Below, in pieces: positions 3,460 to 20,194 of a stretch of DNA of 40,149 nucleotides. Made by a program: the position numbers and the translations under genes. This DNA is from Candidatus Eiseniibacteriota bacterium (lineage in GTDB: Bacteria; Eisenbacteria; RBG-16-71-46). The stretch is from the NCBI GenBank assembly GCA_034678345.1, contig JAXDBZ010000038.1, positions 1 through 40,149 on the forward strand, in the 5' to 3' direction. The first letter of the stretch is position 1. Every line of letters begins with the position of its first letter. The notes beneath the pieces were generated by a model that was not told where the DNA came from, did not search any database, and saw only the letters and a list, made by a program, of their open reading frames with translations.

Positions 3460-4403
3460 CGTTCCCCCCTCGTGTCGTGGCGCGGCACGTGCGGCGGCAG
3501 ATCGAGCGCGGCCAGCTCGGCGCCGGGCGGGCCCGCCGTGATCGTGACCGCACCATAGCCCACGACCCGCTCTCGGTCACCCATTGGAGCGTCGCCGCTG
3601 TTGGCGTGCGAGACCACGGTACCGCGCGTGGCCCCCAGCGCGCGGGCCGCCGCCAGGGTGGCGAGCAGCGGCGAGGCGCCGCAGGCGCAGGTGGCGAGGC
3701 CCTCGCGGCCGGCGCTCTCCTCGGCGCGGATCGTGCGACGCAGGCCGTCGGGGTCGAGCCGGGCGATGGCGGCGAGCACGGCGCGATCGGCAGCGACCGC
3801 GTCGTCGTAGCCCGGGTAGTGCGACAGGTCGCTGCTCGAGACGACCAGCGCGCGCCGGCCGGCGAGCACGCCGGCCAGTGCCACGCCGAAGCGCTCGCAG
3901 CGGCGGGGGTCCTCGCTGCCGACGACCACCGGCAGGATGGGCACGCCCGGCAGCACCGTCTGCACGAAGGGCAGCTGCACCTCGATCGAGTGTTCGCGCT
4001 CGTGCGGCCGCGGGTCGGAGGTGCACTCGCGGTCGGCCGCGAGCAGCGCCGACGCCGTGTCGCCGTCCACCGGCACGGTGCCGAGCGGGGTGCGGAAGCC
4101 GCCGCCGAGGAAGACCGCGACCCCCGAGAAGTTCGCCACCGTGTGGTTGGGGCCGAGCAGGACGACGAGGTCGTAGCGCTGGTTCTCGGTCTGGCGCCAC
4201 CCGTCGGCGGCGATCAGTCCCGAGTACACGTAGCCGGCGTGCGGCACGACCAGCGCGATGGGCCGCGACCCACGCTCCGCGTGGGTGCCCCCGAGCGGGG
4301 GCAGCGCCCGCTCGAGCAGGGCCCGCACGGTCGCCTCGAGCCGCGCCGGGTCGGCGGGGTAGAAGCTGCCGGCCACCACCGGGGAGCGCACCGCCGGTCG
4401 CAT
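3456..4403 (-). CDS. AmmeMemoRadiSam system protein B (Memo-like), stand-alone paralog without a signal peptide
   Basis: 315-aa ORF with the same Memo motifs as the neighbouring fusion: AGSFYPADP, VVPHAGY, LGPNHT, SSDLSHYP, ATCACGASP, VVGYGAV. The start lies 4 nt after the stop of the radical SAM gene. Confidence 0.85.
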   Translation of the reverse strand: MRPAVRSPVVAGSFYPADPARLEATVRALLERALPPLGGTHAERGSRPIALVVPHAGYVYSGLIAADGWRQTENQRYDLVVLLGPNHTVANFSGVAVFLGGGFRTPLGTVPVDGDTASALLAADRECTSDPRPHEREHSIEVQLPFVQTVLPGVPILPVVVGSEDPRRCERFGVALAGVLAGRRALVVSSSDLSHYPGYDDAVAADRAVLAAIARLDPDGLRRTIRAEESAGREGLATCACGASPLLATLAAARALGATRGTVVSHANSGDAPMGDRERVVGYGAVTITAGPPGAELAALDLPPHVPRHDTRGER

Positions 4404-4407
4404 CGTC

Positions 4408-5670
4408 TCAGCTCCACACGCCCGGGATGGCGCGGCCGCACTTCGGGCAGCGGCCGCCGCGCAGGTGGACGGCGCTCACGAACATGCCGTCGCGCTCGAT
4501 CACCTTCGTGCCGCAGCCCGGGCACCAGGTGTGGTTGCCGGGATGCCCCGGCAGGTTGCCGACGTAGGCGAAGCGCAGACCCTGCGCCATGCCGATCTCT
4601 CGCGCGCGCTCGAGCGTGGCCACCGGCGTGGCGGGGAGGTTGCGCAGCTGGTAGTCGGGGTGGAAGCGCGTGAAGTGCACCGGCACGTCGGGGCCCAGCT
4701 CGCCGGCGACCCACTTCGACAGCTCCGTGAGGTCGCGCGGCGAGTCGTTGAGCGTCGGCACGACCAGGTTGACGATCTCGAGGTGCACGCCGCTCCTGGC
4801 CACCTGCCGCAGGCTGCGCAGCACCGGCTTCAGCTCCGCCCCGCACACGTCGCGGTAGAAGTCCTCGCGGAAGCCCTTGAGGTCGATCTTGATGGCGTCG
4901 AGCACGCCGCACAGCTCGCGCAGCGGGGCCTCGTTCATGAAGCCGCAGGAGACGAGGACGGAGCGCCGGCCCAGTGGCCGGGCCGCCCGGGCGATGTCGG
5001 CCATGTACTCGAGGAAGACGGTGGGCTCGTTGTAGGTGAAGGCGATGACCGGGGCGGCGCGGTCCACCGCGGCGCGCGCGATGGCGGCCGCCGGCACGCT
5101 CGGCTGCGCGTAGTCCTCGGGGCGGGCCTGCGAGATCTCCCAGTTCTGGCAGAACTTGCAGCGCAGCGGGCAGCCGCTGGTGGCCAGCGAGTAGGCCGCG
5201 GCTCCCGGCAGGAAGTGGAAGAACGGCTTCTTCTCGATCGGGTCCACGTGGATGCTCATGGGCCGCCCGTACACCAGGCTCCTGAGCTCGCCGCCGACGT
5301 GGATGCGCGCCCCGCAAGCGCCGCGCTCACCCTCGGCCAGCGTGCAGCCGCGCGCGCAGAGCTGGCAGCGCACGAGCGTCCTCGCGTGCCGCGGTGCCGT
5401 GCCGGGCCCGGGGGTGCCCGCGCGCAGCGTGGGTCCGCCCGCGGCGTGGCAGGCGGCGCAATCGGTCGAGGCGGTCGAGACCCAGTAGCGCGCGCGGGGC
5501 GCGCGGCGGACCAGCTCGGCGCGGGGATCCCCGGCCGCGCGCGCGGCCGGCGGCAGAAGGATCTCGAGGCCGCGGGCGGCGGAGTGCAGCGCGCCGCCGG
5601 CCAGCAGGGCGCCGCAGCCCGCGCCGGTGGTGCGCAGGAAATCGCGCCGGGAGAAGGTGGATCGGGACAT
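4408..5670 (-). CDS. AmmeMemoRadiSam system radical SAM enzyme (PflA-like activase fold) with an N-terminal twin-arginine signal extension
   Basis: I trimmed the 904-aa track ORF to the internal ATG at 5670, which has GAGG about 7 nt upstream. N-terminus: MSRSTFSRRDFLRTTGAGCGALLAG (Tat-type motif). Family-typical Cys box: VRCQLCARGCTLAEGERGACGAR. Also DPIEKKPFFHFLPG, the radical SAM CX3CX2C motif CPLRCKFCQNWEISQ (about 5148-5174), and a C-terminal zinc ribbon CPGCGT...CPKCG. Confidence 0.85.
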   Translation of the reverse strand: MSRSTFSRRDFLRTTGAGCGALLAGGALHSAARGLEILLPPAARAAGDPRAELVRRAPRARYWVSTASTDCAACHAAGGPTLRAGTPGPGTAPRHARTLVRCQLCARGCTLAEGERGACGARIHVGGELRSLVYGRPMSIHVDPIEKKPFFHFLPGAAAYSLATSGCPLRCKFCQNWEISQARPEDYAQPSVPAAAIARAAVDRAAPVIAFTYNEPTVFLEYMADIARAARPLGRRSVLVSCGFMNEAPLRELCGVLDAIKIDLKGFREDFYRDVCGAELKPVLRSLRQVARSGVHLEIVNLVVPTLNDSPRDLTELSKWVAGELGPDVPVHFTRFHPDYQLRNLPATPVATLERAREIGMAQGLRFAYVGNLPGHPGNHTWCPGCGTKVIERDGMFVSAVHLRGGRCPKCGRAIPGVWS

Positions 5671-5717
5671 GGCCGCGCCTCGTTGGGCCGAAGCGTAGCG
5701 CAGGCGCGGGGGGCGGT

Positions 5718-7301
5718 CTACTCCCGGCCCGCGAACAGGCTCGGATAGCGGGCGAGGAAGGCGATGGCGTGCCGCAGCTCGCGCAGGTCCACCGCCTCGC
5801 CGATCTTGTGCGCGTTCTGCATGATGCCGGGCCCCAGCCCGAAGATGGCCGGGTGCCGCATGGTCCCGGCGGTGACCCAGCGCTTGGACTCGGGGACCAC
5901 CAGCGCGGGCTCGTCCACCGGCGCGGGCCAGCCCACGCCGTCGGTGGAGAAGCGCCAGTACCCGAGCCGCGGCTCGCGCCGCAGCGAGCCGCCGCCCTCG
6001 CGCGGCTCGTCCACGTGCGGGGTGACCACGGCGCGGTAGCAGGCCCGGGCCGCGGCGATGGCCGGGTGGTCCTCGGGGGTGCGCCAGGCCCCGTAGACCC
6101 GCGGGTTGCCCGGCGTGTAGCCGCGCCAGGTCGTCTCCTCGTAGCGTGGCACGGCGATCTCGACGTGGAGGCCGTCGGCGATCGCCCGGGCGACGCTGTC
6201 CAGGCCGGCGACGGCGCGCAGGGCGTCGTCGGGCGACTCGCCGGCGGTGAGCCGGCGGTCGAAGCGGAAGGTGAAGCGCTCGGGCACCGAGCAGTCGCTC
6301 GCCGTCTCGACCTTCGCCCAGGTGGCGGTGCGCGAGCCGGGTCCCAGCCGCTCGTCGTGGCCGAAGCTCTCGCCACGCTCGTGCCGCGCTGCCGCCTCGG
6401 CGAGGATGGCCGCGCCGTGCTCGAGCGGGTTGAGGCCCTCGCGCGGGATCGAGCCGTGGCAGGACCGCCCGGTGACGCGCACCTCGATGGTCATGCGGCC
6501 CCGCTGACCGCAGCGGATGACCAGGGCGCCGTCCGTGGTGTCGCCGCTCATCTCGGTGAGCACGACGACGTCGGGCAGCATGGCGGGCGGCGCGCCGGGG
6601 AAGACCCGGCGCGTCAGGTAGAGCGGGCCGCCGCCCTCGTTGTCCTCCTCGGCCGGGGTGACGTAGCTGCGTACGACGACGCCGCGCAGGGCGCCGGCGG
6701 CGCGCAGCTCGACCAGGATGCGCGAGGCGACGATCTGCGCCACCACCCCGCCGAGCTGGTCGGCCGCCCCGCGGCCGAAGACCAGGTGCTCCCACTCGTC
6801 GTCGGGCGGCAGCCAGCCCAGCTCGCTCCGCAGGAAGCCGCGGTCGAGCCGCGCCGGGTCCACCAGGCCGTCGTAGGGGTCGAGTCCCCCGGTGCGCTCG
6901 TGCCAGCGGTCGCGCAGCGCGTGTACCGTGTCGGCGTGGCCGTCGAGGTAGACGACGCGCTTGTCGCGGCGCGCCACGCCGTCGTCGGGGTCCTCGAGCA
7001 CCCAGTAGAGGTTGCCGAAGGCGTCGAAGCCGACGTCGTCCTCGTGCAGCAGGCCGCCGGTCTCGAGCAGCGCCTGGCGCAGGTAGCGCAGGCGCGGGCC
7101 CTCGTGGTTGCTGGTGCCGCACAGCGGATCGCCGCCGGACCCCGACCCCGGGGGTGCCCCGGCGGGTGCCCCCGGGGCGCGGTCCACGTGGTCGGCGGGG
7201 ATGCGGATGGCCTCGCGCAGGAGGGAGGCCGCCAGCGGCAGGTCGCGCGCGGCGGCCGAGGCGATGGCCGCGTCCAGCCCGCCGCGCGCTCCGTCGCTCA
7301 T
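5718..7301 (-). CDS. M20 family metallopeptidase / amidohydrolase (ArgE/DapE/YgeY-like), 527 aa
   Basis: M20 metal and catalytic motifs: LDGHADTV, GRGAADQLGG, PAEEDNEGGG, and the dimerisation-domain-like GRMTIEVRVTGRSCHGS. The ATG at 7301 lies 1 nt after the stop of the upstream carbamoyltransferase. The N-terminal region has a low-complexity insert, APGAPAGAPPGSGSGGDP. Confidence 0.8.
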   Translation of the reverse strand: MSDGARGGLDAAIASAAARDLPLAASLLREAIRIPADHVDRAPGAPAGAPPGSGSGGDPLCGTSNHEGPRLRYLRQALLETGGLLHEDDVGFDAFGNLYWVLEDPDDGVARRDKRVVYLDGHADTVHALRDRWHERTGGLDPYDGLVDPARLDRGFLRSELGWLPPDDEWEHLVFGRGAADQLGGVVAQIVASRILVELRAAGALRGVVVRSYVTPAEEDNEGGGPLYLTRRVFPGAPPAMLPDVVVLTEMSGDTTDGALVIRCGQRGRMTIEVRVTGRSCHGSIPREGLNPLEHGAAILAEAAARHERGESFGHDERLGPGSRTATWAKVETASDCSVPERFTFRFDRRLTAGESPDDALRAVAGLDSVARAIADGLHVEIAVPRYEETTWRGYTPGNPRVYGAWRTPEDHPAIAAARACYRAVVTPHVDEPREGGGSLRREPRLGYWRFSTDGVGWPAPVDEPALVVPESKRWVTAGTMRHPAIFGLGPGIMQNAHKIGEAVDLRELRHAIAFLARYPSLFAGRE

Positions 7302-7302
7302 C

Positions 7303-8448
7303 TCACTTCGCCAGGGCTTCGAGCCGCCGCGCCAGATCGGGGGTCTTGGCCACGGCCAGCAGGGCCATGATGACGTACATCTTGTACTGCGCCTGGCGGG
7401 CGACGTTCACGGCGTGCTGCTTCATCACGCCGTGCGACACCTCGTCACCGATGTCGGCGGGCAGCGGGTGCATGTAGAGCGCGTTCCCGCCCTTCGTCAG
7501 CCCCATGCGCCGCTCGTCGCAGATCCAGTCCTTGTGCGCGGCGTTCCCGGCCAGCGCCGCCTTCTCGATCTCCGCCAGCTTCGCCTTGTCCTTGGACTTG
7601 TTGGCGGCCACGCGCGCGAGCATGAGGTCGTAGGGGCCCCAGGACTTGGGATAGACGATGTCGGCGCCCGCGAAGGCGTCGTCCATCGAGTTCGTGACGC
7701 GGAACGAGCCGCCCGAGGCCTTCGCCGCGGCGTGCGCGTACTCCATCGTGTCGGGCATGAGGTGGTAGCCCTCGGGGTGGGCGAGCACGACCTCGGCGCC
7801 GAAGCGGGTGAACAGCATCGAGCAGCCCTGCGCCACCGACAGCGGTTTGGCGTAGGAGGGCGAGTAGGCCCAGGAGACGGCGATCTTCCTGCCCTGCAGG
7901 CCGCCCGGGTGGCATTCGCGCATCCACATCAGGTCGGCCATGGTCTGCGTCGGGTGGTCGATGTCGCACTGCAGGTTCACGACCGGGACCTTGCGCGGGT
8001 CCTTCACCGCGGCCAGGTAAGCGTCGATACCCTGGGCGACGTCGCGCATGAAGGAGTTGCCCTCGCCGATGATCATGTCGTGGCGCACGCCCAGCGCGTG
8101 GGAGTTCATGCCCAGCATGGCGCCGGTCTCGACGGCGGTCTCGCCGTGCGAGACCTGCGTCGAGCCGCCATCCACGATGACCGGGCTGAGGCCGAGTCGG
8201 GCGCAGGCGCCCGCCCACGCCGACTTCGTGCGCGTGGACTGGTCGAAGAACAACGCCCAGCCCAGCTCGTCCTCGAACAGGGCGGTGGACCGGCCGGCGT
8301 AGTCGAGGCCGGCGAAGCGGCCGATCACCGCCATGAGCGTCTCCAGCTCGGGCGTCGTCCAGTCGCGCGTCAGCAGCATGTTGCGGCCGAACAGCGCGTC
8401 CAGGGCGGCCTGGGCGGGGACCGGCGGCAGGGTCGTCACGGGGCTCAT
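7303..8448 (-). CDS. ygeW: YgeW-type (knotted) carbamoyltransferase family protein
   Basis: I trimmed the 981-aa track ORF to the ATG at 8448, which is preceded by GAAGGAG. Transcarbamylase motifs: FFDQSTRTKSAW (STRTx carbamoyl-phosphate loop), GVRHDM, CDIDHPTQTMADL (HPTQ), YMHPLPA. The 382-aa length and overall layout fit the YgeW subgroup better than ArgF or PyrB. The subgroup assignment is by eye only. Confidence 0.75.
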   Translation of the reverse strand: MSPVTTLPPVPAQAALDALFGRNMLLTRDWTTPELETLMAVIGRFAGLDYAGRSTALFEDELGWALFFDQSTRTKSAWAGACARLGLSPVIVDGGSTQVSHGETAVETGAMLGMNSHALGVRHDMIIGEGNSFMRDVAQGIDAYLAAVKDPRKVPVVNLQCDIDHPTQTMADLMWMRECHPGGLQGRKIAVSWAYSPSYAKPLSVAQGCSMLFTRFGAEVVLAHPEGYHLMPDTMEYAHAAAKASGGSFRVTNSMDDAFAGADIVYPKSWGPYDLMLARVAANKSKDKAKLAEIEKAALAGNAAHKDWICDERRMGLTKGGNALYMHPLPADIGDEVSHGVMKQHAVNVARQAQYKMYVIMALLAVAKTPDLARRLEALAK

Positions 8449-8676: not shown

Positions 8677-10155
8677 ATGCCGTCGAAGCACACCATCAAC
8701 GAAGCCGTCCTCGCCCGGGCCGTGGCCCGCTGCCGCGAGCGCAACATCATCATCCCCACCTTTGCCGAGCAGAAGGACCCGGCGCTCGTGCCCGCGCCGA
8801 TCCGCAAGCGGCTGGCCGGCGTCGGGCTGTGGGACGTCAACCCGCTCAACCTGTACCGCATCACGTGGAAGAACGAGCCGAAGGCGAAGGGTGGGCTGTA
8901 CAACCAGGGCAACTGGATCGAGTTCCCGCCCGAGCTGACCGGCGTCCCCGCACGCATCGTCGGGCTGGTGGGCAAGTACTTCCCGACCGGTGCCCACAAG
9001 GTCGGCGCCGCCTTCGGCTGCCTGGTGCCCCGGCTGGTGAGCGGCGAGTTCGACCCCGAGAACCACAAGGCGGTCTGGCCCTCGACCGGGAACTACTGCC
9101 GCGGCGGCGCCTTCGACTGCGCCCTGCTCGCCTGCAAGGCCATCGCCATCCTGCCCGAGGGCATGTCGCGCGAGCGCTTCGAGTGGTTGCACGAGATCGG
9201 CACGGACGAGGTCATCGCCACGCCCGGCACCGAGTCGAACGTCAAGGAGATCTACGACAAGTGCTGGGAGCTGCGGAAGACGCGCGGCGACGAGGTCCTG
9301 ATCTTCAACCAGTTCGACGAGTTCGGGAACGCGGTCTGGCACTACACCATGACCGGCTCGATCATCGAGGAGATCCACGAGCGGATCCGCCGGCCCGACG
9401 ACCGCCTCGCCGTCTACGTCTCGGCCACGGGCTCGGCCGGCACCATCGCCGCCGGCGACTACCTGCGGACGAGGTTCCCGCACCTCAAGGTCGTGGCGAC
9501 CGAGGCGCTGCAGTGCCCGACGCTGTTCGCCAACGGCTATGGCGCGCACCGCATCGAGGGCATCGGCGACAAGCACGTGCCCTGGGTGCACAACGTGCGC
9601 AACACCGACATGGTCGCGGCCATCGACGACGAACAGACGATGAGCCTGCTGCGCCTGTTCAACGAGGAGACCGGCATCGAGTTCCTCGCCGGCCAGGGAC
9701 TGAAGGCCGACTTCCTGAAGAGCCTGCCGCTGCTCGGCATCTCCAGCATCTGCAACCTGGTGGCGGCCATCAAGGCGGCGAAGTACTACGAGCTGGACGG
9801 TCGCGACGTGCTGTACACGGCGCTCACCGACTCGATGGAGCTGTACGACTCGCGCAAGCAGGAGTTGCGCGACGAGCGCGGCCCCTACACCCGCGAGCAG
9901 GCGGCCATGGACTACGCGCGCTACCTGCAGGGCGCGGGAACGGACTACCTGCAGGAGCTGGGCTACCGCGACCGCAAGCGGCTCCACAACCTGAAGTACT
10001 TCACCTGGGTGGAGCAGCAGGACAAGACCTCGGAGGAGCTCGCGGAACTGTGGGACCCGGATTTCTGGACCGGGATCTGGGCCCAGGTCCCCGAGTGGGA
10101 CGAGCGGATCCGCGAATTCAACGAACGCACCGGGCTGCTCCAGCAGCTGACCTGA
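8677..10155 (+). CDS. PLP-dependent enzyme of the tryptophan-synthase-beta/cysteine-synthase fold (PALP) with a ~150-aa helical C-terminal extension; specificity unknown
   Basis: 492 aa from the ATG at 8677, which has a strong SD (GGAGAAGGAG). Candidate PLP lysine in YFPTGAHKVGAAF (AAG at 8998-9000). Fold-type II markers: WPSTGNYCRGGAF, YVSATGSAGTIAAG, HRIEGIGDKHVP. The upstream part of the 1015-aa track ORF is Arg/Gly junk. Confidence 0.75.
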   Translation: MPSKHTINEAVLARAVARCRERNIIIPTFAEQKDPALVPAPIRKRLAGVGLWDVNPLNLYRITWKNEPKAKGGLYNQGNWIEFPPELTGVPARIVGLVGKYFPTGAHKVGAAFGCLVPRLVSGEFDPENHKAVWPSTGNYCRGGAFDCALLACKAIAILPEGMSRERFEWLHEIGTDEVIATPGTESNVKEIYDKCWELRKTRGDEVLIFNQFDEFGNAVWHYTMTGSIIEEIHERIRRPDDRLAVYVSATGSAGTIAAGDYLRTRFPHLKVVATEALQCPTLFANGYGAHRIEGIGDKHVPWVHNVRNTDMVAAIDDEQTMSLLRLFNEETGIEFLAGQGLKADFLKSLPLLGISSICNLVAAIKAAKYYELDGRDVLYTALTDSMELYDSRKQELRDERGPYTREQAAMDYARYLQGAGTDYLQELGYRDRKRLHNLKYFTWVEQQDKTSEELAELWDPDFWTGIWAQVPEWDERIREFNERTGLLQQLT

Positions 10156-10265: not shown

Positions 10266-11216
10266 ATGACGAACGAGAAGAAGCTGGCGATCCTCGCCGT
10301 GGGCGGGAACTCGCTGATCATCGACGAGAAGCACCGGACGGTGGAGGACCAGTACGCCGCCGTCGAGGAGACGTGCCGGCACATCGCCGGACTGGTGAAG
10401 AAGGGCTACCGCGTGGTGGTGACGCACGGCAACGGCCCGCAGGTCGGCTTCATCCTGCGGCGCAGCGAGCTGGCCGCCCACGAGCTGCACGAGGTCCCGC
10501 TCGACTCCTGCGGCGCCGACACCCAGGGCGCCATCGGCTACCAGGTGCAGCGCGCCCTGTACAACGAGATGAAGGACTGGCCCGAGAAGCCCGTGGTCGC
10601 GACCGTGGTCACCCAGGTGCTGGTGGACCGCACGGACCCGTCGTTCCAGAAGCCCTCGAAGCCGATCGGCTCGTTCATGGACGAGGCGAAGGCGAAGCTG
10701 CACCGCGAGCGGGACAAGTGGGACATCGTCGAGGACGCCGGCCGCGGCTTCCGCCGCGTCGTCGCCTCGCCGCGGCCCCAGCGGATCGTCGAGCTGGAGG
10801 CCATCCGGCGCCTGCTCGAGAACGACATCCTGGTGGTGGCGGTCGGCGGCGGTGGTATCCCGGTGGTCGAGGACGAGCAGGGCCACCTGCAGGGCGCGGC
10901 TGCGGTCATCGACAAGGACCTCGCCACCAGCCTGCTGGCGCGCGAACTGAAGGCCGACGTGCTCATCATCTCGACCGCGATCGAGAAGGTCTGCCTGAAC
11001 TACCGCAAGCCCGACCAGAGGGACATCGACCGCATGAACCTGGCCGAGGCCAAGCGGTACCTGGCCGAGGGGCACTTCGCGCCGGGCAGCATGAAGCCGA
11101 AGATCGAGGCGATCGTCGAGTTCCTCGAGGCGGGCGGGACGCAGGCGCTCATCACCGACCCGCTGCACCTCGTGCCCGCGCTGGAGGGGAAGACGGGCAC
11201 CTGGATCATCGCATGA
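10266..11216 (+). CDS. arcC: Carbamate kinase
   Basis: 316 aa. Matching segments: KLAILAVGGNSL, VVVTHGNGPQVG, DSCGADTQGAIGY, RRVVASPRPQRIVE, VVAVGGGGIPVV, AVIDKDLATSLLA, FAPGSMKPKIEA. This is a textbook carbamate kinase layout. The start was trimmed from the track ORF beginning at 8466. Confidence 0.9.
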   Translation: MTNEKKLAILAVGGNSLIIDEKHRTVEDQYAAVEETCRHIAGLVKKGYRVVVTHGNGPQVGFILRRSELAAHELHEVPLDSCGADTQGAIGYQVQRALYNEMKDWPEKPVVATVVTQVLVDRTDPSFQKPSKPIGSFMDEAKAKLHRERDKWDIVEDAGRGFRRVVASPRPQRIVELEAIRRLLENDILVVAVGGGGIPVVEDEQGHLQGAAAVIDKDLATSLLARELKADVLIISTAIEKVCLNYRKPDQRDIDRMNLAEAKRYLAEGHFAPGSMKPKIEAIVEFLEAGGTQALITDPLHLVPALEGKTGTWIIA

Positions 11217-12451
11217 CCACCGGCCGGGCCGCGCTGGCCGGGCTGCGCTGCGTGCGCTGCGGGACGCTCACGCCCGCCGCCGACGACCTCTACGTCTGCC
11301 CGGCCTGCGGCGCCAACACGCAGGTCGAGTACGACTACGACGCCGTGAAGCGCGACTGGTCGCGCGAGGCCCTGGCCGCCGACCGCGACCCGACCCTGTG
11401 GCGCTACCTGCCGCTGCTGCCGGTGAGCGCGCGGCTCGAGGGCCCGCCGGTGGGCGGCACGCCGCTCGTGCCGGCGCCGCGGCTGGCGAAGGAGTTGGGA
11501 CTCGCGCAACCGGTGCTGCTCAAGGACGACGGCCGCAACCCCAGCGCCTCGTTCAAGTGCCGCGCCAGCGCGGTGGCGCTGCGGCGCGCGCTGGACGTGG
11601 GCCGCACGCTGGTGACCGGCGCCTCGACCGGCAACGCCGCCTCGGCCACCGCCGTGCTCGCCGCCGCGCCGGGCATCCGCACGCGCATCTTCGTGCCGAA
11701 GAACGCGCCGCGCGCCAAGATCGCCCAGCTGCTGACCTTTGGCGCCGAGGTCCTGGCGGTCGAGGGGACGTACGACCAGGCCTTCGACCTGTGCCTCGAG
11801 GCGACGCGGCGCTTCGGCTGGTACAACCGCAACACCGGCTTCAACCCCTGGACGCGCGAGGGGAAGAAGACGGTCTCGTTCGAGATCTGCGAGCAGCTCG
11901 ACTGGCAGGTGCCGGACCTCGTCGTCGTGCCGGTGGGCGACGGCAACATCCTGTCGGGGGTCTGGAAGGGCTTCGTCGAGTTCCAGCGCCTCGGTTTCAT
12001 CGAGCGGCTGCCGAGGCTGCTCGCCGTGCAGGCCGAGGGCAGCGCCGCCATCGTGAACGCCGCCGCCGGCGACGGCGTCATCCGGCCGGTCTCGGGCGAG
12101 ACGGTGGCCGACTCGATCTCGGTGAGCCTGCCGCGGGACGGCGAGGCGGCGGTGCAGGCCATCCGCGCCTCGGGCGGCTTCGGCGTCACCGTGCCCGACG
12201 CGGCCATCCTCGCCGCCATCGGCGAGCTGGCGCGCGGCGCCGGCGTGTTCGCTGAGCCCGCGGCGGCGGCGACGTGGGCCGGCCTGAAGGAGGCGGTCCG
12301 GCAGGGCCGCGTGGACCCGGCCTGGCGCGTGGTGGCGCTCGTCACCGGCAACGGCCTCAAGGACGTGGCCGCGGCCATGAAGACGGCGGGGGAGCCGCGG
12401 GTCATCCCGCCCGACCCGTCCGTGCTGGACACGTTGTTCCCGGAAGGATAA
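11213..12451 (+). CDS. Threonine-synthase-like PLP enzyme (fold type II) with an N-terminal zinc ribbon; function not assigned
   Basis: 412 aa. The ATG overlaps the carbamate kinase stop (ATGA at 11213-11216). Zinc ribbon: CVRCGT...CPACG. PLP-lysine motif NPSASFKCRAS (11549-11569). Also TGASTGNAASA, VVVPVGDGNILSG and LVTGNGLKD. Confidence 0.75.
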   Translation: MTTGRAALAGLRCVRCGTLTPAADDLYVCPACGANTQVEYDYDAVKRDWSREALAADRDPTLWRYLPLLPVSARLEGPPVGGTPLVPAPRLAKELGLAQPVLLKDDGRNPSASFKCRASAVALRRALDVGRTLVTGASTGNAASATAVLAAAPGIRTRIFVPKNAPRAKIAQLLTFGAEVLAVEGTYDQAFDLCLEATRRFGWYNRNTGFNPWTREGKKTVSFEICEQLDWQVPDLVVVPVGDGNILSGVWKGFVEFQRLGFIERLPRLLAVQAEGSAAIVNAAAGDGVIRPVSGETVADSISVSLPRDGEAAVQAIRASGGFGVTVPDAAILAAIGELARGAGVFAEPAAAATWAGLKEAVRQGRVDPAWRVVALVTGNGLKDVAAAMKTAGEPRVIPPDPSVLDTLFPEG

Positions 12452-12518: not shown

Positions 12519-13475
12519 ATGAGGAGCTTCATCGGACGTGACATCCTGTCGCTCAGGGACTTCGAGCGCGACGACTACACGCGCATCTTCCAGGTCTGCG
12601 AGCAGCTGGCGCCCGCCGCGCACAACCGCCGCAACATGGACCTGTGCAAGGACAAGACGCTGCTGACCGCGTTCTACCAGCCCAGCACCCGCACCCGCAT
12701 GTCCACCGAGGCCGCCATGCACCGCCTCGGCGGGCACGTGCTCGGCTTCTCCGACGCCAAGATGACCCGCGCCGGCGACTTCTACCAGGAGTCCATCCAG
12801 GACACCGTGCGCATGCTCGAGTACTACGCCGACGTCATCGCCATGCGGCACTACCAGCTCGGCGCGCCGGCCGAGGCGGCGAAGCACTCCTCGGTGCCCA
12901 TCATCAACTGCGGCGACGGCTGGGGCGAGCACCCCACCCAGGTGCTCACCGACCTGTACACGATCTGGCGCGAGCGCGGCACGCTCGACGGCCTGCGCTG
13001 GCTGTGCGTCGGCGACCACCGCATGCGCACCATGCACTCGATCGGCCACGCCGCCACCCAGTTCGACATGGAGCTGGACGTCGTGTACCCGCCCGACATG
13101 GCGCCGACCGAGGAGTTCAAGCAGGAGCTGCGCGGCCGCAACGTGCGCTACAACGAGTTCAAGAGCACCAAGGACTGCATCGCCAAGGCCGATATCATCT
13201 ACATCGAGCCGGTGGTGCAGGCCGACTACACCAAGTCGCGCGTGGACGCGGCCGACGCCAAGAAGGGTCTGACGCCGCCCGAGTACCAGATCACCCGCGA
13301 GATGATGCGCGACCTGGCCAAGCGGGACGCCATCGTGCTGCACTCGCTGCCGCGCATGGACGAGCTGCCCACCGACGTGGACCGCACCCGGCACGCCCGC
13401 TACTGGATCGAGGCGGCGAACGGCGTCGTGCTGCGCATGGCGCTCATCGCCCTCGTACTGGGGCGCGCCGAGTAG
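12519..13475 (+). CDS. Aspartate-carbamoyltransferase-like (PyrB-fold) transcarbamylase with a divergent second-substrate site
   Basis: 318 aa. Matching segments: FYQPSTRTRMS, IAMRH, GEHPTQVLTDL, VGDHRMRTMHS, LHSLPRMDELPTDVD, NGVVLRMALIALVLG. It is collinear with PyrB. However, the segment aligning with the PyrB aspartate-binding TRVQKER reads EPVVQAD (13206-13226). No pyrI or pyrC is adjacent. Confidence 0.8.
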   Translation: MRSFIGRDILSLRDFERDDYTRIFQVCEQLAPAAHNRRNMDLCKDKTLLTAFYQPSTRTRMSTEAAMHRLGGHVLGFSDAKMTRAGDFYQESIQDTVRMLEYYADVIAMRHYQLGAPAEAAKHSSVPIINCGDGWGEHPTQVLTDLYTIWRERGTLDGLRWLCVGDHRMRTMHSIGHAATQFDMELDVVYPPDMAPTEEFKQELRGRNVRYNEFKSTKDCIAKADIIYIEPVVQADYTKSRVDAADAKKGLTPPEYQITREMMRDLAKRDAIVLHSLPRMDELPTDVDRTRHARYWIEAANGVVLRMALIALVLGRAE

Positions 13476-13504
13476 CGGCTCCGGCAGGGGCTTACGCGCG
13501 TTCG

Positions 13505-13548
13505 GGGGCGGACCGGACCAGCTTTCGGCTGGTGCCCGGGTCCGCCCC
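13505..13548 (+). terminator. GC-rich hairpin downstream of the PyrB-like gene (candidate terminator)
   Basis: GGGGCGGACC (13505-13514) pairs with GGTCCGCCCC (13539-13548). An inner stem ACCAGC/GCTGGT encloses the loop TTTCG. Only a weak T tract (CTTTGG) follows. Confidence 0.45.
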
Positions 13549-14382: not shown

Positions 14383-17300
14383 ATGCACGCGAACCGACTC
14401 CATCCGCTCGCGACGGGCGCCCTCGTCCTGGCGCTCGCCTGCCTCTTCGGCGGTCTCACGCCCGGCTCGGCCGGTGCCCAGTGCGAATACCCGAGGCTGA
14501 ACAGCGGCACGCCGGTCGCGGTCGGCACGTCGCCCAGCTTCTTCAGCTTCGGCCAGCCCGTCAACTACTGGACCGTCATCGCGGTGCAGCCGCCGAGCGC
14601 CGCGGACTGGGACCTCAGCGTCTGGCAGGACACCTACACGTACCCCGTCTGCGTGTCGAACCTCCTGGCGGGCTCCTCGTACGGCGGCAGCACCGTGGAC
14701 TTCGTCGTCGGGGACTACAACTTCAACGCCTACGGTACCCGCTACGTCCAGGCCAATCTCTACTCGGGGACGGGAGACGCCACGGTGGAGTGGAACGCCA
14801 CGGACGGCCTGCTCGGCGTCAACGCCGCCGCCTTCCAGGTGGACTTCGCCGGGGGCACCTCGCCCTTCATCCACGTGTGGGACGTCGCTCTGGAGGCCGG
14901 GCGAACGTACCGGTTCAACTTCTACCCGTACGGTTCGGCCGCCAGCCACCTGCTGCTATTCAGCAACACCGGCCAGGGGACGTGCTGGAAGCGGCGCGCG
15001 GACGCCGAGTTCGACGTCACCTCGAGCACGACCTACGTCGCGCCCGTCACGGGGTACTACGGCCTGGTGGTGGTCAACGACAACGCGGCGGGCGGCACGG
15101 TCATCGCGAACGTGGAGGCCTGCACGACGCCCATCCCCCTCGTCAGCGGCGTATCGCAGTCGTCCGATCTGGTCTCCAACTACTACTCGTTCGACCAGCA
15201 GCAGAACTACTGGACGGCGATCGGCCTGCGGTGCGACGGCAGCTCCGGGTTGAGCGTGTACCGCTCCGCGCCGGGCGACATCACCACGGGCTGTCTCGCG
15301 GACGAGCTCGCCAGCTCGAGTCCCTTTGCCGGCATGGCGGGCGTGGTGGTGGGGGACTTCAACTACAACACGCCGGGCACGTACTACGTCGGCGCCTGGC
15401 GCTCGATCAGCCTGCCGCCGCTCACGGGGGTCACGCAGTGGGACGACGACCGCGACCAGCTGACTGTGAACGGCATGCTCACCAACGGGACGATGAGCAG
15501 CAGCGACGTCGTGCGCGCGTGGGAAGTGTACCTGTACGGGGGCACGACCTACCGCTTCACCTTTGGCCGCAGCGGCGCCGACCTCAGCCTGCTGCTCTTC
15601 CGCAACCCGGCCGCAGGCGAGTACTGGGCGGGACGGTCGAGCGCGGTCCTGAGCACGGAGGGCGACGCCGACTACACGGCCCCCAGCTCCGGTCTCTACG
15701 GCGTGGTGATCGTGAACGACGACGGCGCCGCGGGCTCCTACGCCGTCGGGGTCGGCACCTGCACGACGCCGGTGGCGCTCACGTACGACCAGCCCTGGGT
15801 CACCCCGCTGGGGGAGAACTACGTCTCCTGCGACATGGTGTGGGCGGGCTGGGAAGCCCTCGGCGTGCGGGGCAGCGACCCGGGGACCGACTGGGACATG
15901 GTCGTGCAGGGCACGGACGCCGCCGCCTTCCCCGCGTGCCGCGGGCCGGACATCGCCGTCTCGGACCTGCCGCCGCCCGCGGCGGACTTCGCGATGGTGT
16001 TCTTCCCGAACCCCTACAACGGAATCCGCCACGCGTGGCCGCACACCTACTACGGCCAGGGGAGCGGCACCGGCACGGTCACGTGGACGGGCGCCTACTT
16101 CGGGTTGCTCCCCAACGACCAGTTGATCCAGTGCACCTTCCAACCGACGGGCCAGTTCCTCTTCCTGCGGACCGCCAGCCTGACCGCCGGCCATACGTAC
16201 TGGCTCAGGTATTACGGCCCGAGCACGTCGGACGGCCGGCTGATGCTGTTCCGCAATCCGTCCAGCGGCGAGTACTGGGTGCCCCGCAGCGGTGCCGTGG
16301 CGCAGACCACGGGCGGCGAGGACACGCCCTACACGGCGCCCGCCACGGGATACTACGCGGCGGTGGTCGTGGACGACGCTAGCGAGGTGTCCGACCACGC
16401 CCTGTTCGGCATCGGGGAGTGCACGCCGCCCACCGCCCTCTCCTCGGGCACAGTGGCCTACTCCCTCCTCGCCCGGACCTACTACTCGTTCACGGAGTCC
16501 AGCCCCTACTGGACCGCGGTGGCGGCCCGCGTCCCCGCGCCGTGGAACCTCGGCGCCTACGCCAATCCGAGCGGCGGCACCTACCCCGAGTGCCTGAGCG
16601 GCGGCCTCGCCGCGTCGGAAGGTGGCTCGATGCGCGCCGCGGTCTTGGTCGGCGACTTCAACCACAATCCCTACGGCACGTACTACCTGTACTCCGGGAT
16701 CGAGGGCGGCCTGTGGTACATCAGCGGGGCGTACGTGGACTGGCAGGCCGGCTCCCAAATGATCGGCGTGGGCGACCCGCCCGTCGCACGCACGACCGGG
16801 CCCGACGACGTGCTGGAGGTCTGGGACTGCTGGCTCGAGCCGCAGAAGGACTACACGTTCAAGCTCAGCCACGCAGGGGCAGCGAACCTCAAGCTGCTCG
16901 TCTTCCGCAACACGGGCGGCGGCACGTACTGGGCCGGGCGCGACGACGCGCAGGTCGAGCTGACCGGCCAGGCGACCTGGAGGACCACCGGGACCAGCAG
17001 CGAGTACTACGGGCTCGTGGTGGTCAACGACAACGGCGAGTCGGACAGCTACACGTTGCAGGTGGTGGACGCCGGTGCCTCGGCGGTGGACGACGCGCCG
17101 CCCTCCGCCACGGAGTTCGGGAGCGTCCGGCCCAACCCGGCGCGGGGAGACGTGCGCCTCGAGTTCGCGCTGCGCGAGGCGGCGGACGTGTCGTTCCGGG
17201 TCCTCGACATGGCCGGGCGCGTGGTGGCGACGCTACCCGCGCGGGCCTGCAGCGCGGGCCGGAGCGCCGCGACGTGGGACGGACGCGGTCCGGACGGGTC

Positions 17301-17385
17301 CCGGCTGCCCGCCGGGGTCTACCTCGTGCGGATGGCGGCGGGCGGGAGGGTCATCGGCACGCGGCGGGTCGCGCTGCTGGATTGA
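14383..17385 (+). CDS. 1000-aa secreted protein: signal peptide, four tandem ~215-aa modules, and a FlgD-Ig/T9SS-type C-terminal sorting-like domain
   Basis: Signal peptide: MHANRLHPLATGALVLALACLFGGLTPGSAGAQ. The C-terminal ~90 aa (from about 17113) read RPNPARGDVRLEFALREAADVSFRVLDMAGRVVATL...GVYLVRMAAGGRVIGTRRVALLD, which is typical of FlgD-Ig/por-secretion-tail domains. See the repeat feature for the module structure. Confidence 0.85.
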   Translation: MHANRLHPLATGALVLALACLFGGLTPGSAGAQCEYPRLNSGTPVAVGTSPSFFSFGQPVNYWTVIAVQPPSAADWDLSVWQDTYTYPVCVSNLLAGSSYGGSTVDFVVGDYNFNAYGTRYVQANLYSGTGDATVEWNATDGLLGVNAAAFQVDFAGGTSPFIHVWDVALEAGRTYRFNFYPYGSAASHLLLFSNTGQGTCWKRRADAEFDVTSSTTYVAPVTGYYGLVVVNDNAAGGTVIANVEACTTPIPLVSGVSQSSDLVSNYYSFDQQQNYWTAIGLRCDGSSGLSVYRSAPGDITTGCLADELASSSPFAGMAGVVVGDFNYNTPGTYYVGAWRSISLPPLTGVTQWDDDRDQLTVNGMLTNGTMSSSDVVRAWEVYLYGGTTYRFTFGRSGADLSLLLFRNPAAGEYWAGRSSAVLSTEGDADYTAPSSGLYGVVIVNDDGAAGSYAVGVGTCTTPVALTYDQPWVTPLGENYVSCDMVWAGWEALGVRGSDPGTDWDMVVQGTDAAAFPACRGPDIAVSDLPPPAADFAMVFFPNPYNGIRHAWPHTYYGQGSGTGTVTWTGAYFGLLPNDQLIQCTFQPTGQFLFLRTASLTAGHTYWLRYYGPSTSDGRLMLFRNPSSGEYWVPRSGAVAQTTGGEDTPYTAPATGYYAAVVVDDASEVSDHALFGIGECTPPTALSSGTVAYSLLARTYYSFTESSPYWTAVAARVPAPWNLGAYANPSGGTYPECLSGGLAASEGGSMRAAVLVGDFNHNPYGTYYLYSGIEGGLWYISGAYVDWQAGSQMIGVGDPPVARTTGPDDVLEVWDCWLEPQKDYTFKLSHAGAANLKLLVFRNTGGGTYWAGRDDAQVELTGQATWRTTGTSSEYYGLVVVNDNGESDSYTLQVVDAGASAVDDAPPSATEFGSVRPNPARGDVRLEFALREAADVSFRVLDMAGRVVATLPARACSAGRSAATWDGRGPDGSRLPAGVYLVRMAAGGRVIGTRRVALLD
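14482..17070 (+). repeat. Four tandem protein-level repeat modules (aa 34-247, 248-460, 461-680, 681-~896), each ending in a PPC-like (pre-peptidase C-terminal-like) beta-sandwich signature
   Basis: Modules are delimited by Cys codons at 14482, 15121, 15760 and 16420. Recurrent strings: NYWT(V/A)I, VVGD(Y/F)N(F/Y)N..GT(R/Y)YV, (T/D)Y(R/T)F(N/T/K)(F/L), LLLF(S/R)N...(E)YWAGR, Y(V/T)AP..G(Y/L)YG(L/V)V(V/I)VND, then ...C(T)TP. Divergence is at the protein level; there is no long DNA identity. Confidence 0.8.
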
Positions 17386-17419: not shown

Positions 17420-18568
17420 TCAGAGCGCCCGGGCCAGCGCCTGGTAGCCGCGCGCGGCGGCGACCAGTTCGGCCTCGCTCACGCTCTCGTCCACCGCGTG
17501 GGCGGCCGAGATGTCCCCGGCGCCGTAGATGAGCGTGGGCAGGCCGCGCCGCCCGGCGGTGGCGGTGGCGTTCGTGCTGTAAGGGGCGTAGAACACCTCG
17601 GCGCCGAGTCCCGCCTCGCGCAGCGCCGCCCGCGCGCGCCGGGCGTGCGCGGCGTCCGCCGGGACCGCCCAGCCGGGATGGAACGCCTCGACCGTGAAGG
17701 CGGCGCCGGTGTAGCACTCGAGCGTGCCGGCGTGGAGCGACACGGTGATACCGTCGAGCCCGGCGAGCGCCTCCACGAACTCGCCGAGCATGCCGTCGCG
17801 CGTCTCGCCGCGCACCAGCCGGCGGTCGAAGCGCGCGGTCGCCCGGTAGGGCACCATCGCCGAGCCGGGCCAGGGCAGCGAGCCGATCTCGACCAGCTCG
17901 GCGTGGCCGCGGCCCAGCAACTCGTCCTCGCGCGGCGTCATGGCGCGCACGCGGGCGATGGCCTCGGTCAGCCGGTACACCGCGTTGACGCCGTTCTCCG
18001 CCCGCGAGGTGTGCGCGGCGCGGCCCGCGGCCTCGACCACGAGGCTCGCCCGGCCGCGGTGGCCGAGGCCGACGGCGAGGCGGGTGGGCTCGCAGACGAC
18101 CGCGGCGCGCACCGCGTGGCGCTCGAGCAGGTGGCCGACCGCCAGGCCCTCGATGCGCTCCTCGCCGACGCTGGCCGAGACCAGCACGTCGCCGGCCAGC
18201 TCCGCGCGCGGCAGCAGGCCGATGCCGACCACGGCCGCGGCGAGCGAGCCCTTGACGTCGGTGCTGCCGCGGCCCCAGAGGCGGCCCTCCGAGCGCTCGG
18301 CCGAGAACGGCGGGAAACGCCACGCCGCGGGCTCGGGGGCCGGCACGACGTCCATGTGCGCGTCCACGAGCAGGGGCGGCCCGCTCCGTGCGCCGCGCCG
18401 CCGGCCCAGCACGCTGCCCAACTCGTCCACGCGCACCTCGTCGTAGCCGAGTGCCGTCATCGCCCGCGCGACCGCGGCCGCCGTGTCCTGCTCGCGGCCC
18501 GAGAGGCTCTCGATGCGCACCAGCTCCTGGCCGAGGGCCAGCGTCCCCGACTCCAGCTCCGTCGTCAT
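17420..18568 (-). CDS. M20 family metallohydrolase (ArgE/DapE/acetylornithine deacetylase-like)
   Basis: 382 aa. Matching segments: LLVDAHMDVVP, GRGSTDVKGSLAA, SVGEERIEG, GHRGRASLVVEAAGRAAHTS, YGAGDISAAHAVDESV. Confidence 0.85.
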   Translation of the reverse strand: MTTELESGTLALGQELVRIESLSGREQDTAAAVARAMTALGYDEVRVDELGSVLGRRRGARSGPPLLVDAHMDVVPAPEPAAWRFPPFSAERSEGRLWGRGSTDVKGSLAAAVVGIGLLPRAELAGDVLVSASVGEERIEGLAVGHLLERHAVRAAVVCEPTRLAVGLGHRGRASLVVEAAGRAAHTSRAENGVNAVYRLTEAIARVRAMTPREDELLGRGHAELVEIGSLPWPGSAMVPYRATARFDRRLVRGETRDGMLGEFVEALAGLDGITVSLHAGTLECYTGAAFTVEAFHPGWAVPADAAHARRARAALREAGLGAEVFYAPYSTNATATAGRRGLPTLIYGAGDISAAHAVDESVSEAELVAAARGYQALARAL

Positions 18569-18594
18569 GCTCGCGTCCTTTCGCCGCCGAAGCG

Positions 18595-18623
18595 TTGCCG
18601 CCGCGGCCCCCGCAGGCTAGCAT
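18595..18623 (+). promoter_or_regulatory. Candidate sigma70-like promoter for the class V aminotransferase gene
   Basis: TTGCCG (18595-18600), a 17-nt spacer, then TAGCAT (18618-18623). The SD GGAGGAG immediately precedes the ATG at 18659. Confidence 0.35.
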
Positions 18624-18658
18624 GACGCGAAGCGGCACGCCCAAGACCCGGAGGAGAC

Positions 18659-20194
18659 ATGGCCGAACACCGCTTCCCGCCGCTGGTGGACCTGGAGGAC
18701 GACACCCCGCGCACCGCCGTCGTCACGTGCGACGAGGCGGAGGAGCGCGCCTTCCTCGAGCACCTGCGGCGCGGCGTGGTCGGCGCCGACGCCGTCCTCC
18801 ACACGCCGGAGGGGGACAAGCCGCTCCTCTACTTCGACTACATCGCCTCGGGGCGCTTCCACCGCGCCGTCGAGGACGAGCTGGCCACCCGCGTGCTGCC
18901 CTTCATGGCCAACACGCACACAGAGTCCTCGAGCACCGGGCGGCTGATGACGCGCTACTACGAGGGAGCGTTCCGCCGCATCGCGCGCTACCTGAACGCC
19001 GGGCCCGACGACGTGCTCATCCCGGTGGGCTCGGGTTCGACCGGTGCGGTGAACCGCCTCATCCACGTCCTCGGGCTGCGCATCCCCTGCCAGCTCGAGG
19101 ACCGCTACCACCTGTCGCGCTACGTTCCCGAGGCCGAGCGCCCGGTCGTCTTCCGCAGCCACATGGAGCACCACAGCAACGACATCACCTGGCGGGAGAC
19201 CATCGCCGAGAGCGTCTACGTGGACTTCGACGCGCACGGGCGGGTGAGCCTCGAGCACCTCGACCGCCTGCTGGCGAAGCACGCCGCCCGGCCGCTCAGG
19301 ATCGGCACGTTCTCGGCCGCCTCGAACGTGACCGGCATCCTCAACGACACCACCGCCATCGCCCGCGTGCTGCACGCGCACGGGGCGCTGGCCTTCTTCG
19401 ACTACGCCGCCTCGGGCCCCTACGTGGACATCGACCTGCACCCGGTGGGGGACGACGGACGGCCCGACGCGGCGGCCGCCAAGGACGCGGCGTTCTTCTC
19501 GGTGCACAAGTTCCTCGGCGGGCCGCGCACGCCCGGGCTGCTGGTGGCGGACCGGAAGCTGTTCACCAACCGCGTGCCCTCCGAGCCGGGCGGCGGCACG
19601 GTGCTCTACACCTCGCCCACCGAGCACGTCTATCTTCACGACTTCTTCCGCCGCGAGACCGGCGGCACGCCGCCCATCGTCGGCAGCGTCCAGGCCGGGC
19701 TGGCGTTCGACCTCAAGCACGGCATCGGCACGGTCCGCATCCGCCGCGTCGAGGAGGACTACCTGCGGCGCGCGCTGGCGGAGTGGACCCGCGACCCGAA
19801 TCTGGAGATCCTGGGCAACCTCGAGGCGGAGCGGCTGGGGGTGGTGTCGCTCATCTTCCGCGGCGTGCACCACAACCTGGCCTCGGCTCTGCTGAACGAC
19901 TTCTTCGGCATCCAGGTGCGGGGCGGCTGCATGTGCGCCGGGCCCTACGGGCACGAGCTGCTGCACATCGACCAGCGGGTCTCGCTCGTCATCAAGAAGC
20001 AGCTCGAGCAGGGGCACATCGGCGTGAAGCCCGGCTGGGTGCGCATCTGCTTCTCGCCGGTGACGGGGGAGAAGGAGTTCCAGACGCTGCTCGAGGGCGT
20101 GGCGTTCGTGGCGAAGCACGGCCACGAGTACTACGACCGCTACACGCTCGACGACACGACCGGCGAGTGGAGGAGAACCGCGGGCGCCGTCTAG
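18659..20194 (+). CDS. Aminotransferase class V-fold PLP-dependent enzyme (cysteine desulfurase/selenocysteine lyase-like superfamily), 511 aa
   Basis: Matching segments: ANTHTESSSTG, PVGSGSTGAVN, HHSNDITW, SAASNVTGIL, FFSVHKFLGGPRTPGLL (PLP lysine), RGGCMCAGPYGH. A strong SD is present. Confidence 0.75.
   Translation: MAEHRFPPLVDLEDDTPRTAVVTCDEAEERAFLEHLRRGVVGADAVLHTPEGDKPLLYFDYIASGRFHRAVEDELATRVLPFMANTHTESSSTGRLMTRYYEGAFRRIARYLNAGPDDVLIPVGSGSTGAVNRLIHVLGLRIPCQLEDRYHLSRYVPEAERPVVFRSHMEHHSNDITWRETIAESVYVDFDAHGRVSLEHLDRLLAKHAARPLRIGTFSAASNVTGILNDTTAIARVLHAHGALAFFDYAASGPYVDIDLHPVGDDGRPDAAAAKDAAFFSVHKFLGGPRTPGLLVADRKLFTNRVPSEPGGGTVLYTSPTEHVYLHDFFRRETGGTPPIVGSVQAGLAFDLKHGIGTVRIRRVEEDYLRRALAEWTRDPNLEILGNLEAERLGVVSLIFRGVHHNLASALLNDFFGIQVRGGCMCAGPYGHELLHIDQRVSLVIKKQLEQGHIGVKPGWVRICFSPVTGEKEFQTLLEGVAFVAKHGHEYYDRYTLDDTTGEWRRTAGAV

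Follow-up and report, generated by a model that had tools for sequence, protein, structure and literature searches.

An aspartate carbamoyltransferase paralogue with an altered second-substrate site and a probable role in reductive urate breakdown, encoded in a Candidatus Eiseniibacteriota genome

Pseudo-ATCases are paralogues of aspartate carbamoyltransferase (ATCase) that branch from the base of the ATC II group, lack the R-x-Q motif and occupy gene contexts of their own (Barba, Dutoit, Legrain and Labedan 2013, BMC Syst Biol 7:99, PMC4016543). One of them, Rxyl_2847 (Q1AS69) of Rubrobacter xylanophilus, is a ureidoglycine carbamoyltransferase (UGTCase), which phosphorolyses the alpha-ureido group of allantoate (PMC4016543), and another subgroup had a single member, A1SH59 from Nocardioides sp. 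JS614, which adjoins a ygeW homologue, xdhABC and hyuA and for which the function was left open (PMC4016543). A further described system is the reductive (2,8-dioxopurine) urate pathway of Escherichia coli, which yields 2,3-diureidopropionate (DUPA); YgeW takes one DUPA ureido group with phosphate, the M20 hydrolase YgeY takes the other with water, and YgeX converts 2,3-diaminopropionate (DAP) to pyruvate and ammonia (PMC12507026; bioRxiv 10.1101/2025.04.24.650524). DUPA is a homologue of allantoate that is one carbon longer (PMC12990295), and a variant of the pathway with an F420-type reductase has been reported in Chloroflexota (Li et al., 2025). The subject of the present analysis is a gene at 12519..13475 (+ strand) of a 40,149-nucleotide stretch of DNA, hereafter the window, from a Candidatus Eiseniibacteriota bacterium (assembly GCA_034678345.1, contig JAXDBZ010000038.1, positions 1 to 40,149 of the forward strand). 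Its stop-free translation of 318 aa, referred to here as ATCL, is a new member of the pseudo-ATCase class known since 2013. It is probably a catabolic carbamoyltransferase of the JS614 type that belongs to a variant form of the reductive urate pathway, in which it would take over the YgeY step.

A first-pass annotation of the window, made by a model from the sequence alone, had described the gene product as a transcarbamylase with a different second substrate rather than a biosynthetic ATCase, a description supported by the alignments, the separate pyrB gene, the family scores below cut-off and the published pseudo-ATCase clade set out below. It had also proposed that the protein be placed phylogenetically. 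ATCL and A1SH59 were found to be 70.6% identical over 309 aa, and in a tree of 84 sequences they formed one clade with 11 other members (support 100/95), which was recovered in 100% of the bootstrap trees. This clade sat within a larger one of 44 sequences (97/92), made up of non-canonical ATCase-like proteins with a TRAGD-type loop; ATCL branched with ATC II and is distinct from the true pyrB product of the same organism, and the UGTCase pair formed a separate clade. As expected of a JS614-type protein, ATCL also carries HSLP for HPLP and P-V-V instead of R-x-Q, and its gene has a ygeW-like neighbour. The motifs and sequence of A1SH59 were taken from the alignment of Barba et al. and not from their Table 1, in which the "pseudo-ATCase 2" row does not fit. 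The Table 1 motif rows for the three pseudo-ATCase subgroups agree neither with the labels on the tree nor with the alignment that was deposited (Additional files 5 and 6) and appear to have been permuted; according to the alignment and tree labels, A1SH59 has HSLP and P-V-V, Q1AS69 has HTLP and G-C-S, and the marine group has HPLA (PMC4016543). A literature search returned no paper after 2013 that gives the JS614-type subgroup a function.

Both halves of the transcarbamylase fold were recognised in ATCL by Pfam (OTCace_N and OTCace), and its top sequence match among Protein Data Bank (PDB) entries was the Pyrococcus abyssi ATCase 1ml4 (E = 1.5e-67, HMMER). An AlphaFold2 model calculated from an 82-sequence alignment had a predicted local distance difference test score (pLDDT) of 90.7 and template modelling (TM) scores of 0.87-0.90 against ATCases bound to N-(phosphonacetyl)-L-aspartate (PALA), including 1ml4. 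Low confidence was confined to the 80s loop (pLDDT ~58) and the 240s-type loop (59-66), and a single-sequence model (pLDDT 45.8) was discarded. The gene is under purifying selection, with a ratio of nonsynonymous to synonymous substitution rates (dN/dS) of 0.2-0.29; the G+C content at third codon positions (GC3) of its frame is 0.98 in a window of 73% G+C, and a Shine-Dalgarno sequence, GGGAGAGG, lies 7 nt ahead of the ATG. The carbamoyl-phosphate ligands that the first-pass annotation had listed as retained were all found on the + strand. These comprise STRTR (residues 56-60, 12684..12698; E. coli S52-R56), MRH (residues 109-111; R105) and HPTQ (residues 138-141, 12930..12941; H134 and Q137), all three invariant in the family, together with RMRTMHS (residues 168-174, 13020..13040) and HSLPR for HPLPR (residues 275-279, 13341..13355; P266S). 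In RMRTMHS the equivalent of Gly166 is deleted, while Arg170, the equivalent of E. coli Arg167, is kept; in E. coli ATCase, Arg167 is a ligand of the alpha-carboxylate. The carbamoyl-phosphate and catalytic residues S52-R56, R105, H134, Q137, R167, L267 and R296 were invariant in 121 to 227 family members.

At the second-substrate site, the segment TRVQKER is replaced by EPVVQAD at 13206..13226 (+ strand), exactly where the first-pass annotation had read it, with the changes T228E, R229P, Q231V and R234D. The 80s loop, which had likewise been read as not conserved, is TRAGDFYQE at 12765..12791 (+ strand); it is two residues longer than the canonical loop and combines S80R with a two-residue insertion and a tyrosine at the Lys84 position. 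Four independent alignments were compared, namely HMMER against PDB ATCases, MAFFT auto, MAFFT L-INS-i and the curated alignment of Barba et al. The Arg229 position was proline in 4/4 of them, and the Gln231 position was valine in three and threonine in the fourth, MAFFT auto, which opens a 5-residue insertion; arginine or glutamine was thus restored at the equivalents of 229 and 231 in 0/4. When 227 family members were compared with 24 canonical ATCases at sites conserved in ATCases, the changes E50Q, S80R, K84Y, L140T, deletion of G166, V169M, T228E, R229P, Q231V, R234D, F235Y, P266S, F286W and Q288E were all family-invariant (98-100% of members for E50Q, S80R, K84Y, the G166 deletion, T228E, R229P, Q231V, R234D and P266S), so that the pattern is not due to chance. 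Through K84Y, T228E, R229P and R234D, the side-chain end of the pocket has therefore lost two arginines and one lysine and gained two acidic residues. Judged from the sequence, these four changes would suit an amine or ureido side chain instead of a carboxylate. The 240s-type loop is also lengthened (residues 230-259, 13206..13295, + strand), with conserved Gln234, Asp236, Tyr237, Arg241 and Thr252 (query numbering), of which Gln234 and Arg241 are nearly invariant across the family.

The host genome, a metagenome-assembled genome (MAG) of 2.8 Mb that is 87% complete, contains four transcarbamylase genes: a canonical pyrB (contig C189), argF (C141) and two genes in the window. The first-pass annotation had proposed a search for a separate pyrB, and the canonical gene, with RLQRER intact, was found between pyrR and pyrC, so that ATCL is not the only pyrB homologue; a canonical pyrB-type gene was also present in 5/5 other ATCL-carrying genomes checked. 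No pyr genes were found in the window by gene models and family scans, in agreement with the earlier remark that no pyrimidine genes are adjacent. ATCL scored just below the NCBI ATCase cut-offs (TIGR00670, 233.3 vs 236.95; NF002032, 215.5 vs 263), and it is not of the YgeW or ornithine carbamoyltransferase (OTC) type either, scoring 31 bits on YgeW models and far under the cut-offs of the OTC models, and carrying HSLP, unlike the OTC motifs DxxxSMG and HCLP. The label "aspartate carbamoyltransferase" on this gene is very probably wrong.

A scan of one genome per species returned at least 574 confirmed ATCL relatives, i.e. several hundred species genomes, and the best 80 of these span at least 15 phyla. 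The idea of a very tight family (at least 72% identity) was rejected when a search seeded with the sister clade gave members down to about 55-59%. Neighbours within 10 kb were counted at those 42 loci where the ATCL gene is flanked by 5 kb or more of sequence on each side. A YgeW-family carbamoyltransferase was present at 37/42 loci, the pyridoxal phosphate (PLP) enzymes PALP_A and PALP_B at 33/42 and 28/42, an SsnA/HyuA-type amidohydrolase at 27/42, a xanthine-dehydrogenase-like gene at 25/42, carbamate kinase at 24/42 and a luciferase-like (F420-type) reductase at 18/42, whereas an M20 hydrolase was present at only 5/42. The reductive urate pathway described in 2025, its F420-type reductase variant included, has this same set of genes. 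The YgeW-family partner was of a 325-aa type at 28 of the 37 loci, usually directly downstream of ATCL, and full-length at the other nine (9/37); the 325-aa type grouped with YgeW in the tree (100/98). Partners of 325-337 aa (Fodinibacter luteus L005:10966-11943; L008:11255-12268) scored best on OTC models, below the cut-offs, and have SWG for SMG and HPLP for HCLP; this partner looks like a second uncharacterised transcarbamylase subfamily.

Presence and absence of the pathway genes were then surveyed in whole genomes, 50 carrying ATCL and 14 serving as controls. An SsnA-like gene (E<=1e-60) was present in 47/50 ATCL genomes, 20 of these matches being over the curated cut-off, whereas true YgeY and true YgeX (curated cut-offs) were found in 7/50 and 4/50; E. 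coli alone among the controls passed the curated cut-offs for SsnA, YgeY and YgeX. In a random sample of 251 genomes of one actinobacterial class, ATCL was found in 5, and strong SsnA-like matches occurred in 2/5 of these vs 0/246 of the others (Fisher p = 3e-4). Taken with the co-located YgeW-family, carbamate kinase, SsnA and HyuA genes, these patterns give good comparative-genomic support to the proposed role in reductive urate breakdown. The two fold-type-II PLP enzymes, PALP_A and PALP_B, occupy the place that YgeX has in E. coli. PALP_A was not found in 3/4 YgeX-positive ATCL genomes (G022, G271 and G279), which suggests that it substitutes for diaminopropionate ammonia-lyase, the characterised activity of YgeX. 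YgeY was not found in the same three genomes, whose clusters consist of two carbamoyltransferases, carbamate kinase and YgeX; since YgeX needs DAP as its substrate and neither YgeY nor PALP_A was found, the two carbamoyltransferases are therefore the only candidates there for stripping both ureido groups. A strict replacement of YgeY by ATCL was rejected as a general rule, as it holds in 43/50 genomes and fails in the Eisenbacteria, including this MAG, and in a few mixed clusters.

Closest to the ATCL family is a sister clade of Streptomyces and other actinobacterial proteins, about 45% identical to ATCL, encoded inside non-ribosomal peptide synthetase (NRPS) clusters (loci L129:10001-11985 and 18552-19613; L131; L134:2614-4855). 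The E-P-V-V..D-Y and TRAGD pocket motifs are common to both groups. In Streptomyces griseoflavus and S. massasporeus the sister gene lies directly upstream of SbnA, with overlapping reading frames in S. griseoflavus, and SbnB is also in the cluster (SbnA 378 bits, cut-off 350; SbnB 394 bits, cut-off 327). SbnA and SbnB together form L-2,3-diaminopropionate. In another NRPS cluster, the gene immediately after the sister gene encodes a diaminobutyrate transaminase of the EctB type (594 bits, cut-off 552). The sister-clade proteins are probably biosynthetic diamino-acid carbamoyltransferases with the ATCase fold; the clade has apparently been recruited for ureido diamino acid synthesis in Streptomyces peptide clusters. 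These contexts suggest that the whole clade acts on short diamino acids, in agreement with the catabolic context of ATCL. In the wider clade (44/84 tree rows; representative proteins P0129-P0208), the TRAGD-type 80s loop and E50Q were shared and positions 228-234 varied; because of this variation, the wider clade probably has several further acceptor specificities.

From these observations we infer a substrate, a cleaved ureido group and a reaction direction for ATCL, the gene context narrowing the substrate to a ureido derivative of 2,3-diaminopropionate. ATCL would phosphorolyse the 2-ureido group, on the carboxylate-bearing carbon, of DUPA or of 3-amino-2-ureidopropionate to carbamoyl phosphate and a free amine, and the YgeW-family partner would take the 3-ureido group. 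Carbamate kinase, encoded two genes upstream of ATCL, would turn both carbamoyl phosphates to ATP, with a yield of two ATP per urate instead of one, and the conversion of diaminopropionate to pyruvate and ammonia would fall to PALP_A and PALP_B, or to YgeX in genomes that have it. Within the pocket, the acidic Glu230 and Asp236 are predicted to face the amine or ureido side chain. The 2-ureido group is assigned to ATCL because the ATCase-fold enzymes of known substrate (ATCase and UGTCase) act on the nitrogen attached to the carboxylate-bearing carbon and because ATCL retains Arg167, and the 3-ureido group to the partner because OTC and YgeW types act on terminal amines. The phosphorolysis of the alpha-ureido group of allantoate by Rxyl_2847 may serve as an analogy for such an action on DUPA. 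The regiochemistry, which is drawn from context and alignment, is the weakest step of the proposal.

Several observations weigh against this assignment. Two papers of 2025 dispute the regiochemistry of YgeW itself: according to Li et al., E. coli YgeW makes albizziin, i.e. it cleaves the 2-ureido group, whereas Liu et al. have it cleave the 3-ureido group. Pathway intermediates have been reported as R (D)-configured, whereas ATCase uses L-aspartate. The loop residues Gln234 and Arg241 might reach the pocket on loop closure and bind a carboxylate. The sister-clade contexts vary, only some of them indicating DAP or diaminobutyrate, and P0130, P0272 and P0277/P0279 give no pointer to a substrate. 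M20 hydrolase and ATCL genes stand in one cluster at 5/42 loci, and the MAG and its Eisenbacteria relatives also own a true YgeY, to which the MAG adds two M20 paralogues in the window; ATCL therefore adds to the hydrolase here and is no replacement for it, and phosphorolytic and hydrolytic routes may coexist in this MAG. The xanthine-dehydrogenase-like (C318), SsnA-like (C164, only 232 bits) and HyuA-like (C280) genes lie off the window contig, and a dearomatising reductase was not found in the MAG in an F420/luciferase-like search with the Fodinibacter protein as query.

The alternative that survives best keeps the pathway and exchanges the ureido groups, so that ATCL would cleave the 3-ureido group of albizziin (2-amino-3-ureidopropionate) or at N3 of DUPA, with the YgeW partner taking the 2-ureido group. 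If the partner cleaves as Li et al. report for E. coli, ATCL must take the other group, and known natural products derived from DAP carry beta-ureidoalanine (review PMC4581275), the sister clade being found beside SbnA and SbnB. However, the ATCase-fold enzymes with a known substrate act at the amine of the carboxylate-bearing carbon, the Arg167 equivalent is retained, terminal amines are the targets of OTC and YgeW-type enzymes, and Liu et al. give YgeW the 3-ureido cleavage; the exchanged arrangement is considered unlikely.

Much less likely still is that ATCL is a ureidoglycine carbamoyltransferase like Rxyl_2847, phosphorolysing allantoate in the oxidative purine pathway. Both are pseudo-ATCases encoded beside carbamate kinase and near purine-catabolic genes, but ATCL shares only 34% identity with Q1AS69 and belongs to another clade, and the UGTCase keeps a Ser80/Lys84-type loop and has G-C-S at 229-231. 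Around ATCL lie SsnA/HyuA-like, YgeW-family and reductase genes, and neither in the window nor at the related loci examined did the identified genes include uricase, 5-hydroxyisourate (HIU) hydrolase or allantoinase. On its motifs, clade and identity, a UGTCase identity was rejected for ATCL. To a similar degree, it is very doubtful that ATCL is anabolic and forms a ureido amino acid, for instance as part of a secondary metabolite, with carbamate kinase supplying the carbamoyl phosphate. The transcarbamylase equilibrium favours carbamoylation and the sister clade is located in NRPS clusters; however, no NRPS or other biosynthetic genes were seen near ATCL in the window or at 80 loci, the neighbours being catabolic, and ATCL co-occurs with SsnA-like genes. 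Least probable of all is that ATCL is still an aspartate carbamoyltransferase, second or catabolic, in which the conserved loop residues Gln234 and Arg241 bind the beta-carboxylate, because a TIGR00670 score so near the cut-off has to be set against the replacement of Lys84, Arg229, Gln231, Arg234 and Glu50, the gain of acidic residues, the canonical pyrB in the MAG and in all five other genomes checked, and a neighbourhood in which pyr, dihydroorotase and orotate genes were not adjacent.

The reading of ATCL as a phosphorolytic enzyme of reductive urate breakdown can be set against its own locus. Frame-plot gene models and family scans placed the gene last in a four-gene + strand operon that includes carbamate kinase; that it closes an operon with carbamate kinase had been noticed in the first-pass annotation. 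The operon begins with PALP_A (8677..10155), a CysK-like PLP enzyme of 492 aa with a C-terminal extension, followed by carbamate kinase (10266..11216; NF009007, 402 bits, cut-off 266; TIGR00746, 366.5, cut-off 358), which is 47% identical to E. coli YqeA, and by PALP_B (11213..12451), a fold-type-II PLP enzyme that is ThrC-like, carries a zinc ribbon at its N-terminal end and has an ATG that overlaps the carbamate kinase stop. A GC-rich hairpin 3' of the ATCL stop (approximately 13504..13548, + strand), a consensus-type observation only, is probably the operon end. Divergent from the operon, on the - strand, is the gene of the YgeW-family carbamoyltransferase (7303..8421; NF005538, 380 bits, cut-off 453), which is 47% identical to E. 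coli YgeW and groups with it in the tree. Directly downstream of it lies an M20 hydrolase gene, a distant YgeY paralogue (5718..7301, - strand; NF009555, 156 bits, cut-off 321), and a second, YgeY-like M20 hydrolase is encoded at 17420..18568 (- strand; NF009555, 292 bits, cut-off 321). With the true YgeY orthologue (contig C313:15632-16819, 431 bits), the MAG has three YgeY-like M20 hydrolases, and one of the two window paralogues has an N-terminal extension of ~170 aa. On contig C318 (14598-19608), genes for a FAD-binding subunit, a xanthine-dehydrogenase-like protein of 959 aa and an amidohydrolase of 496 aa reach the contig end. Their order matches that of the Fodinibacter cluster, and these C318 genes probably make up the upstream half of the pathway in the MAG. 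Elsewhere in the window, an AmmeMemoRadiSam operon (1843-5700; Memo-AMMECR1 fusion, Memo and radical SAM) directly follows the ygeW-like and M20 genes on the same strand. Two large secreted-looking proteins (14383-17385 and 26518-28839) have a FlgD-Ig or Por-type domain at the C-terminal end, suggesting a type IX-like sorting signal.

A bolder extension of the proposal, put forward tentatively, is that the JS614-type proteins represent a new activity, an N2 (alpha-ureido) 2,3-diaminopropionate carbamoyltransferase, which together with the YgeW partner would make the pathway fully phosphorolytic, each urate giving two carbamoyl phosphates and two ATP. Such a variant would be widespread outside the gut, among bacteria of soil, sediment and groundwater from at least 15 phyla, aerobic actinobacteria being one example. 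The ATCase fold would serve the alpha-ureido group and the OTC/YgeW fold the terminal one, which would settle the dispute over the ureido group taken by YgeW. If the role in urate breakdown proposed above holds, an enzyme group without a function since 2013 would gain one, the gut-bacterial uric-acid pathway of 2025 would have a common environmental form that saves twice the energy, and the order and position of ureido cleavage would be testable with two purified proteins. The correction of the name would be of wide reach, as several hundred species genomes carry such a gene named "aspartate carbamoyltransferase".

Compared with the canonical ATCases (E. coli PyrB and P. abyssi 1ML4), ATCL has the same fold, 35-38% identity, the same carbamoyl-phosphate ligands and Arg167, but it carries other residues in place of Lys84, Arg229, Gln231, Arg234, Glu50 and Pro266, its two loops are longer and no pyr genes are near. 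The UGTCase Rxyl_2847, the one pseudo-ATCase whose activity has been measured, resembles it as a catabolic ATCase paralogue without Arg229 and Gln231, encoded beside carbamate kinase and cleaving an alpha-ureido group with phosphate; it differs in its 34% identity, in the retained Ser80/Lys84-type loop, in GCS at 229-231, in HTLP and in its place in the oxidative allantoin route. With the YgeW/YqeA/YgeY/YgeX system of E. coli, the MAG shares the YgeW-family enzyme and the carbamate kinase (47% identity each) and SsnA-, HyuA- and XdhD-like genes in the genome or cluster, whereas E. coli has no ATCase-like second carbamoyltransferase and uses YgeY and YgeX, which are missing from 43/50 and 46/50 ATCL genomes. 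From the JS614 type, the present locus differs in that its YgeW-type partner is full-length and divergent rather than of the 325-aa type directly downstream, that other contigs carry its xdh, ssnA and hyuA-like genes and that M20 paralogues are adjacent. With A1SH59, labelled ATC_III_HSLP in the tree of Barba et al., ATCL nevertheless shares the motifs TRAG(D)FYQES, EPVVQADYT and HSLPRMDEL and a ygeW homologue as neighbour, and xdh and hyuA-like genes are found in the clusters of ATCL relatives.

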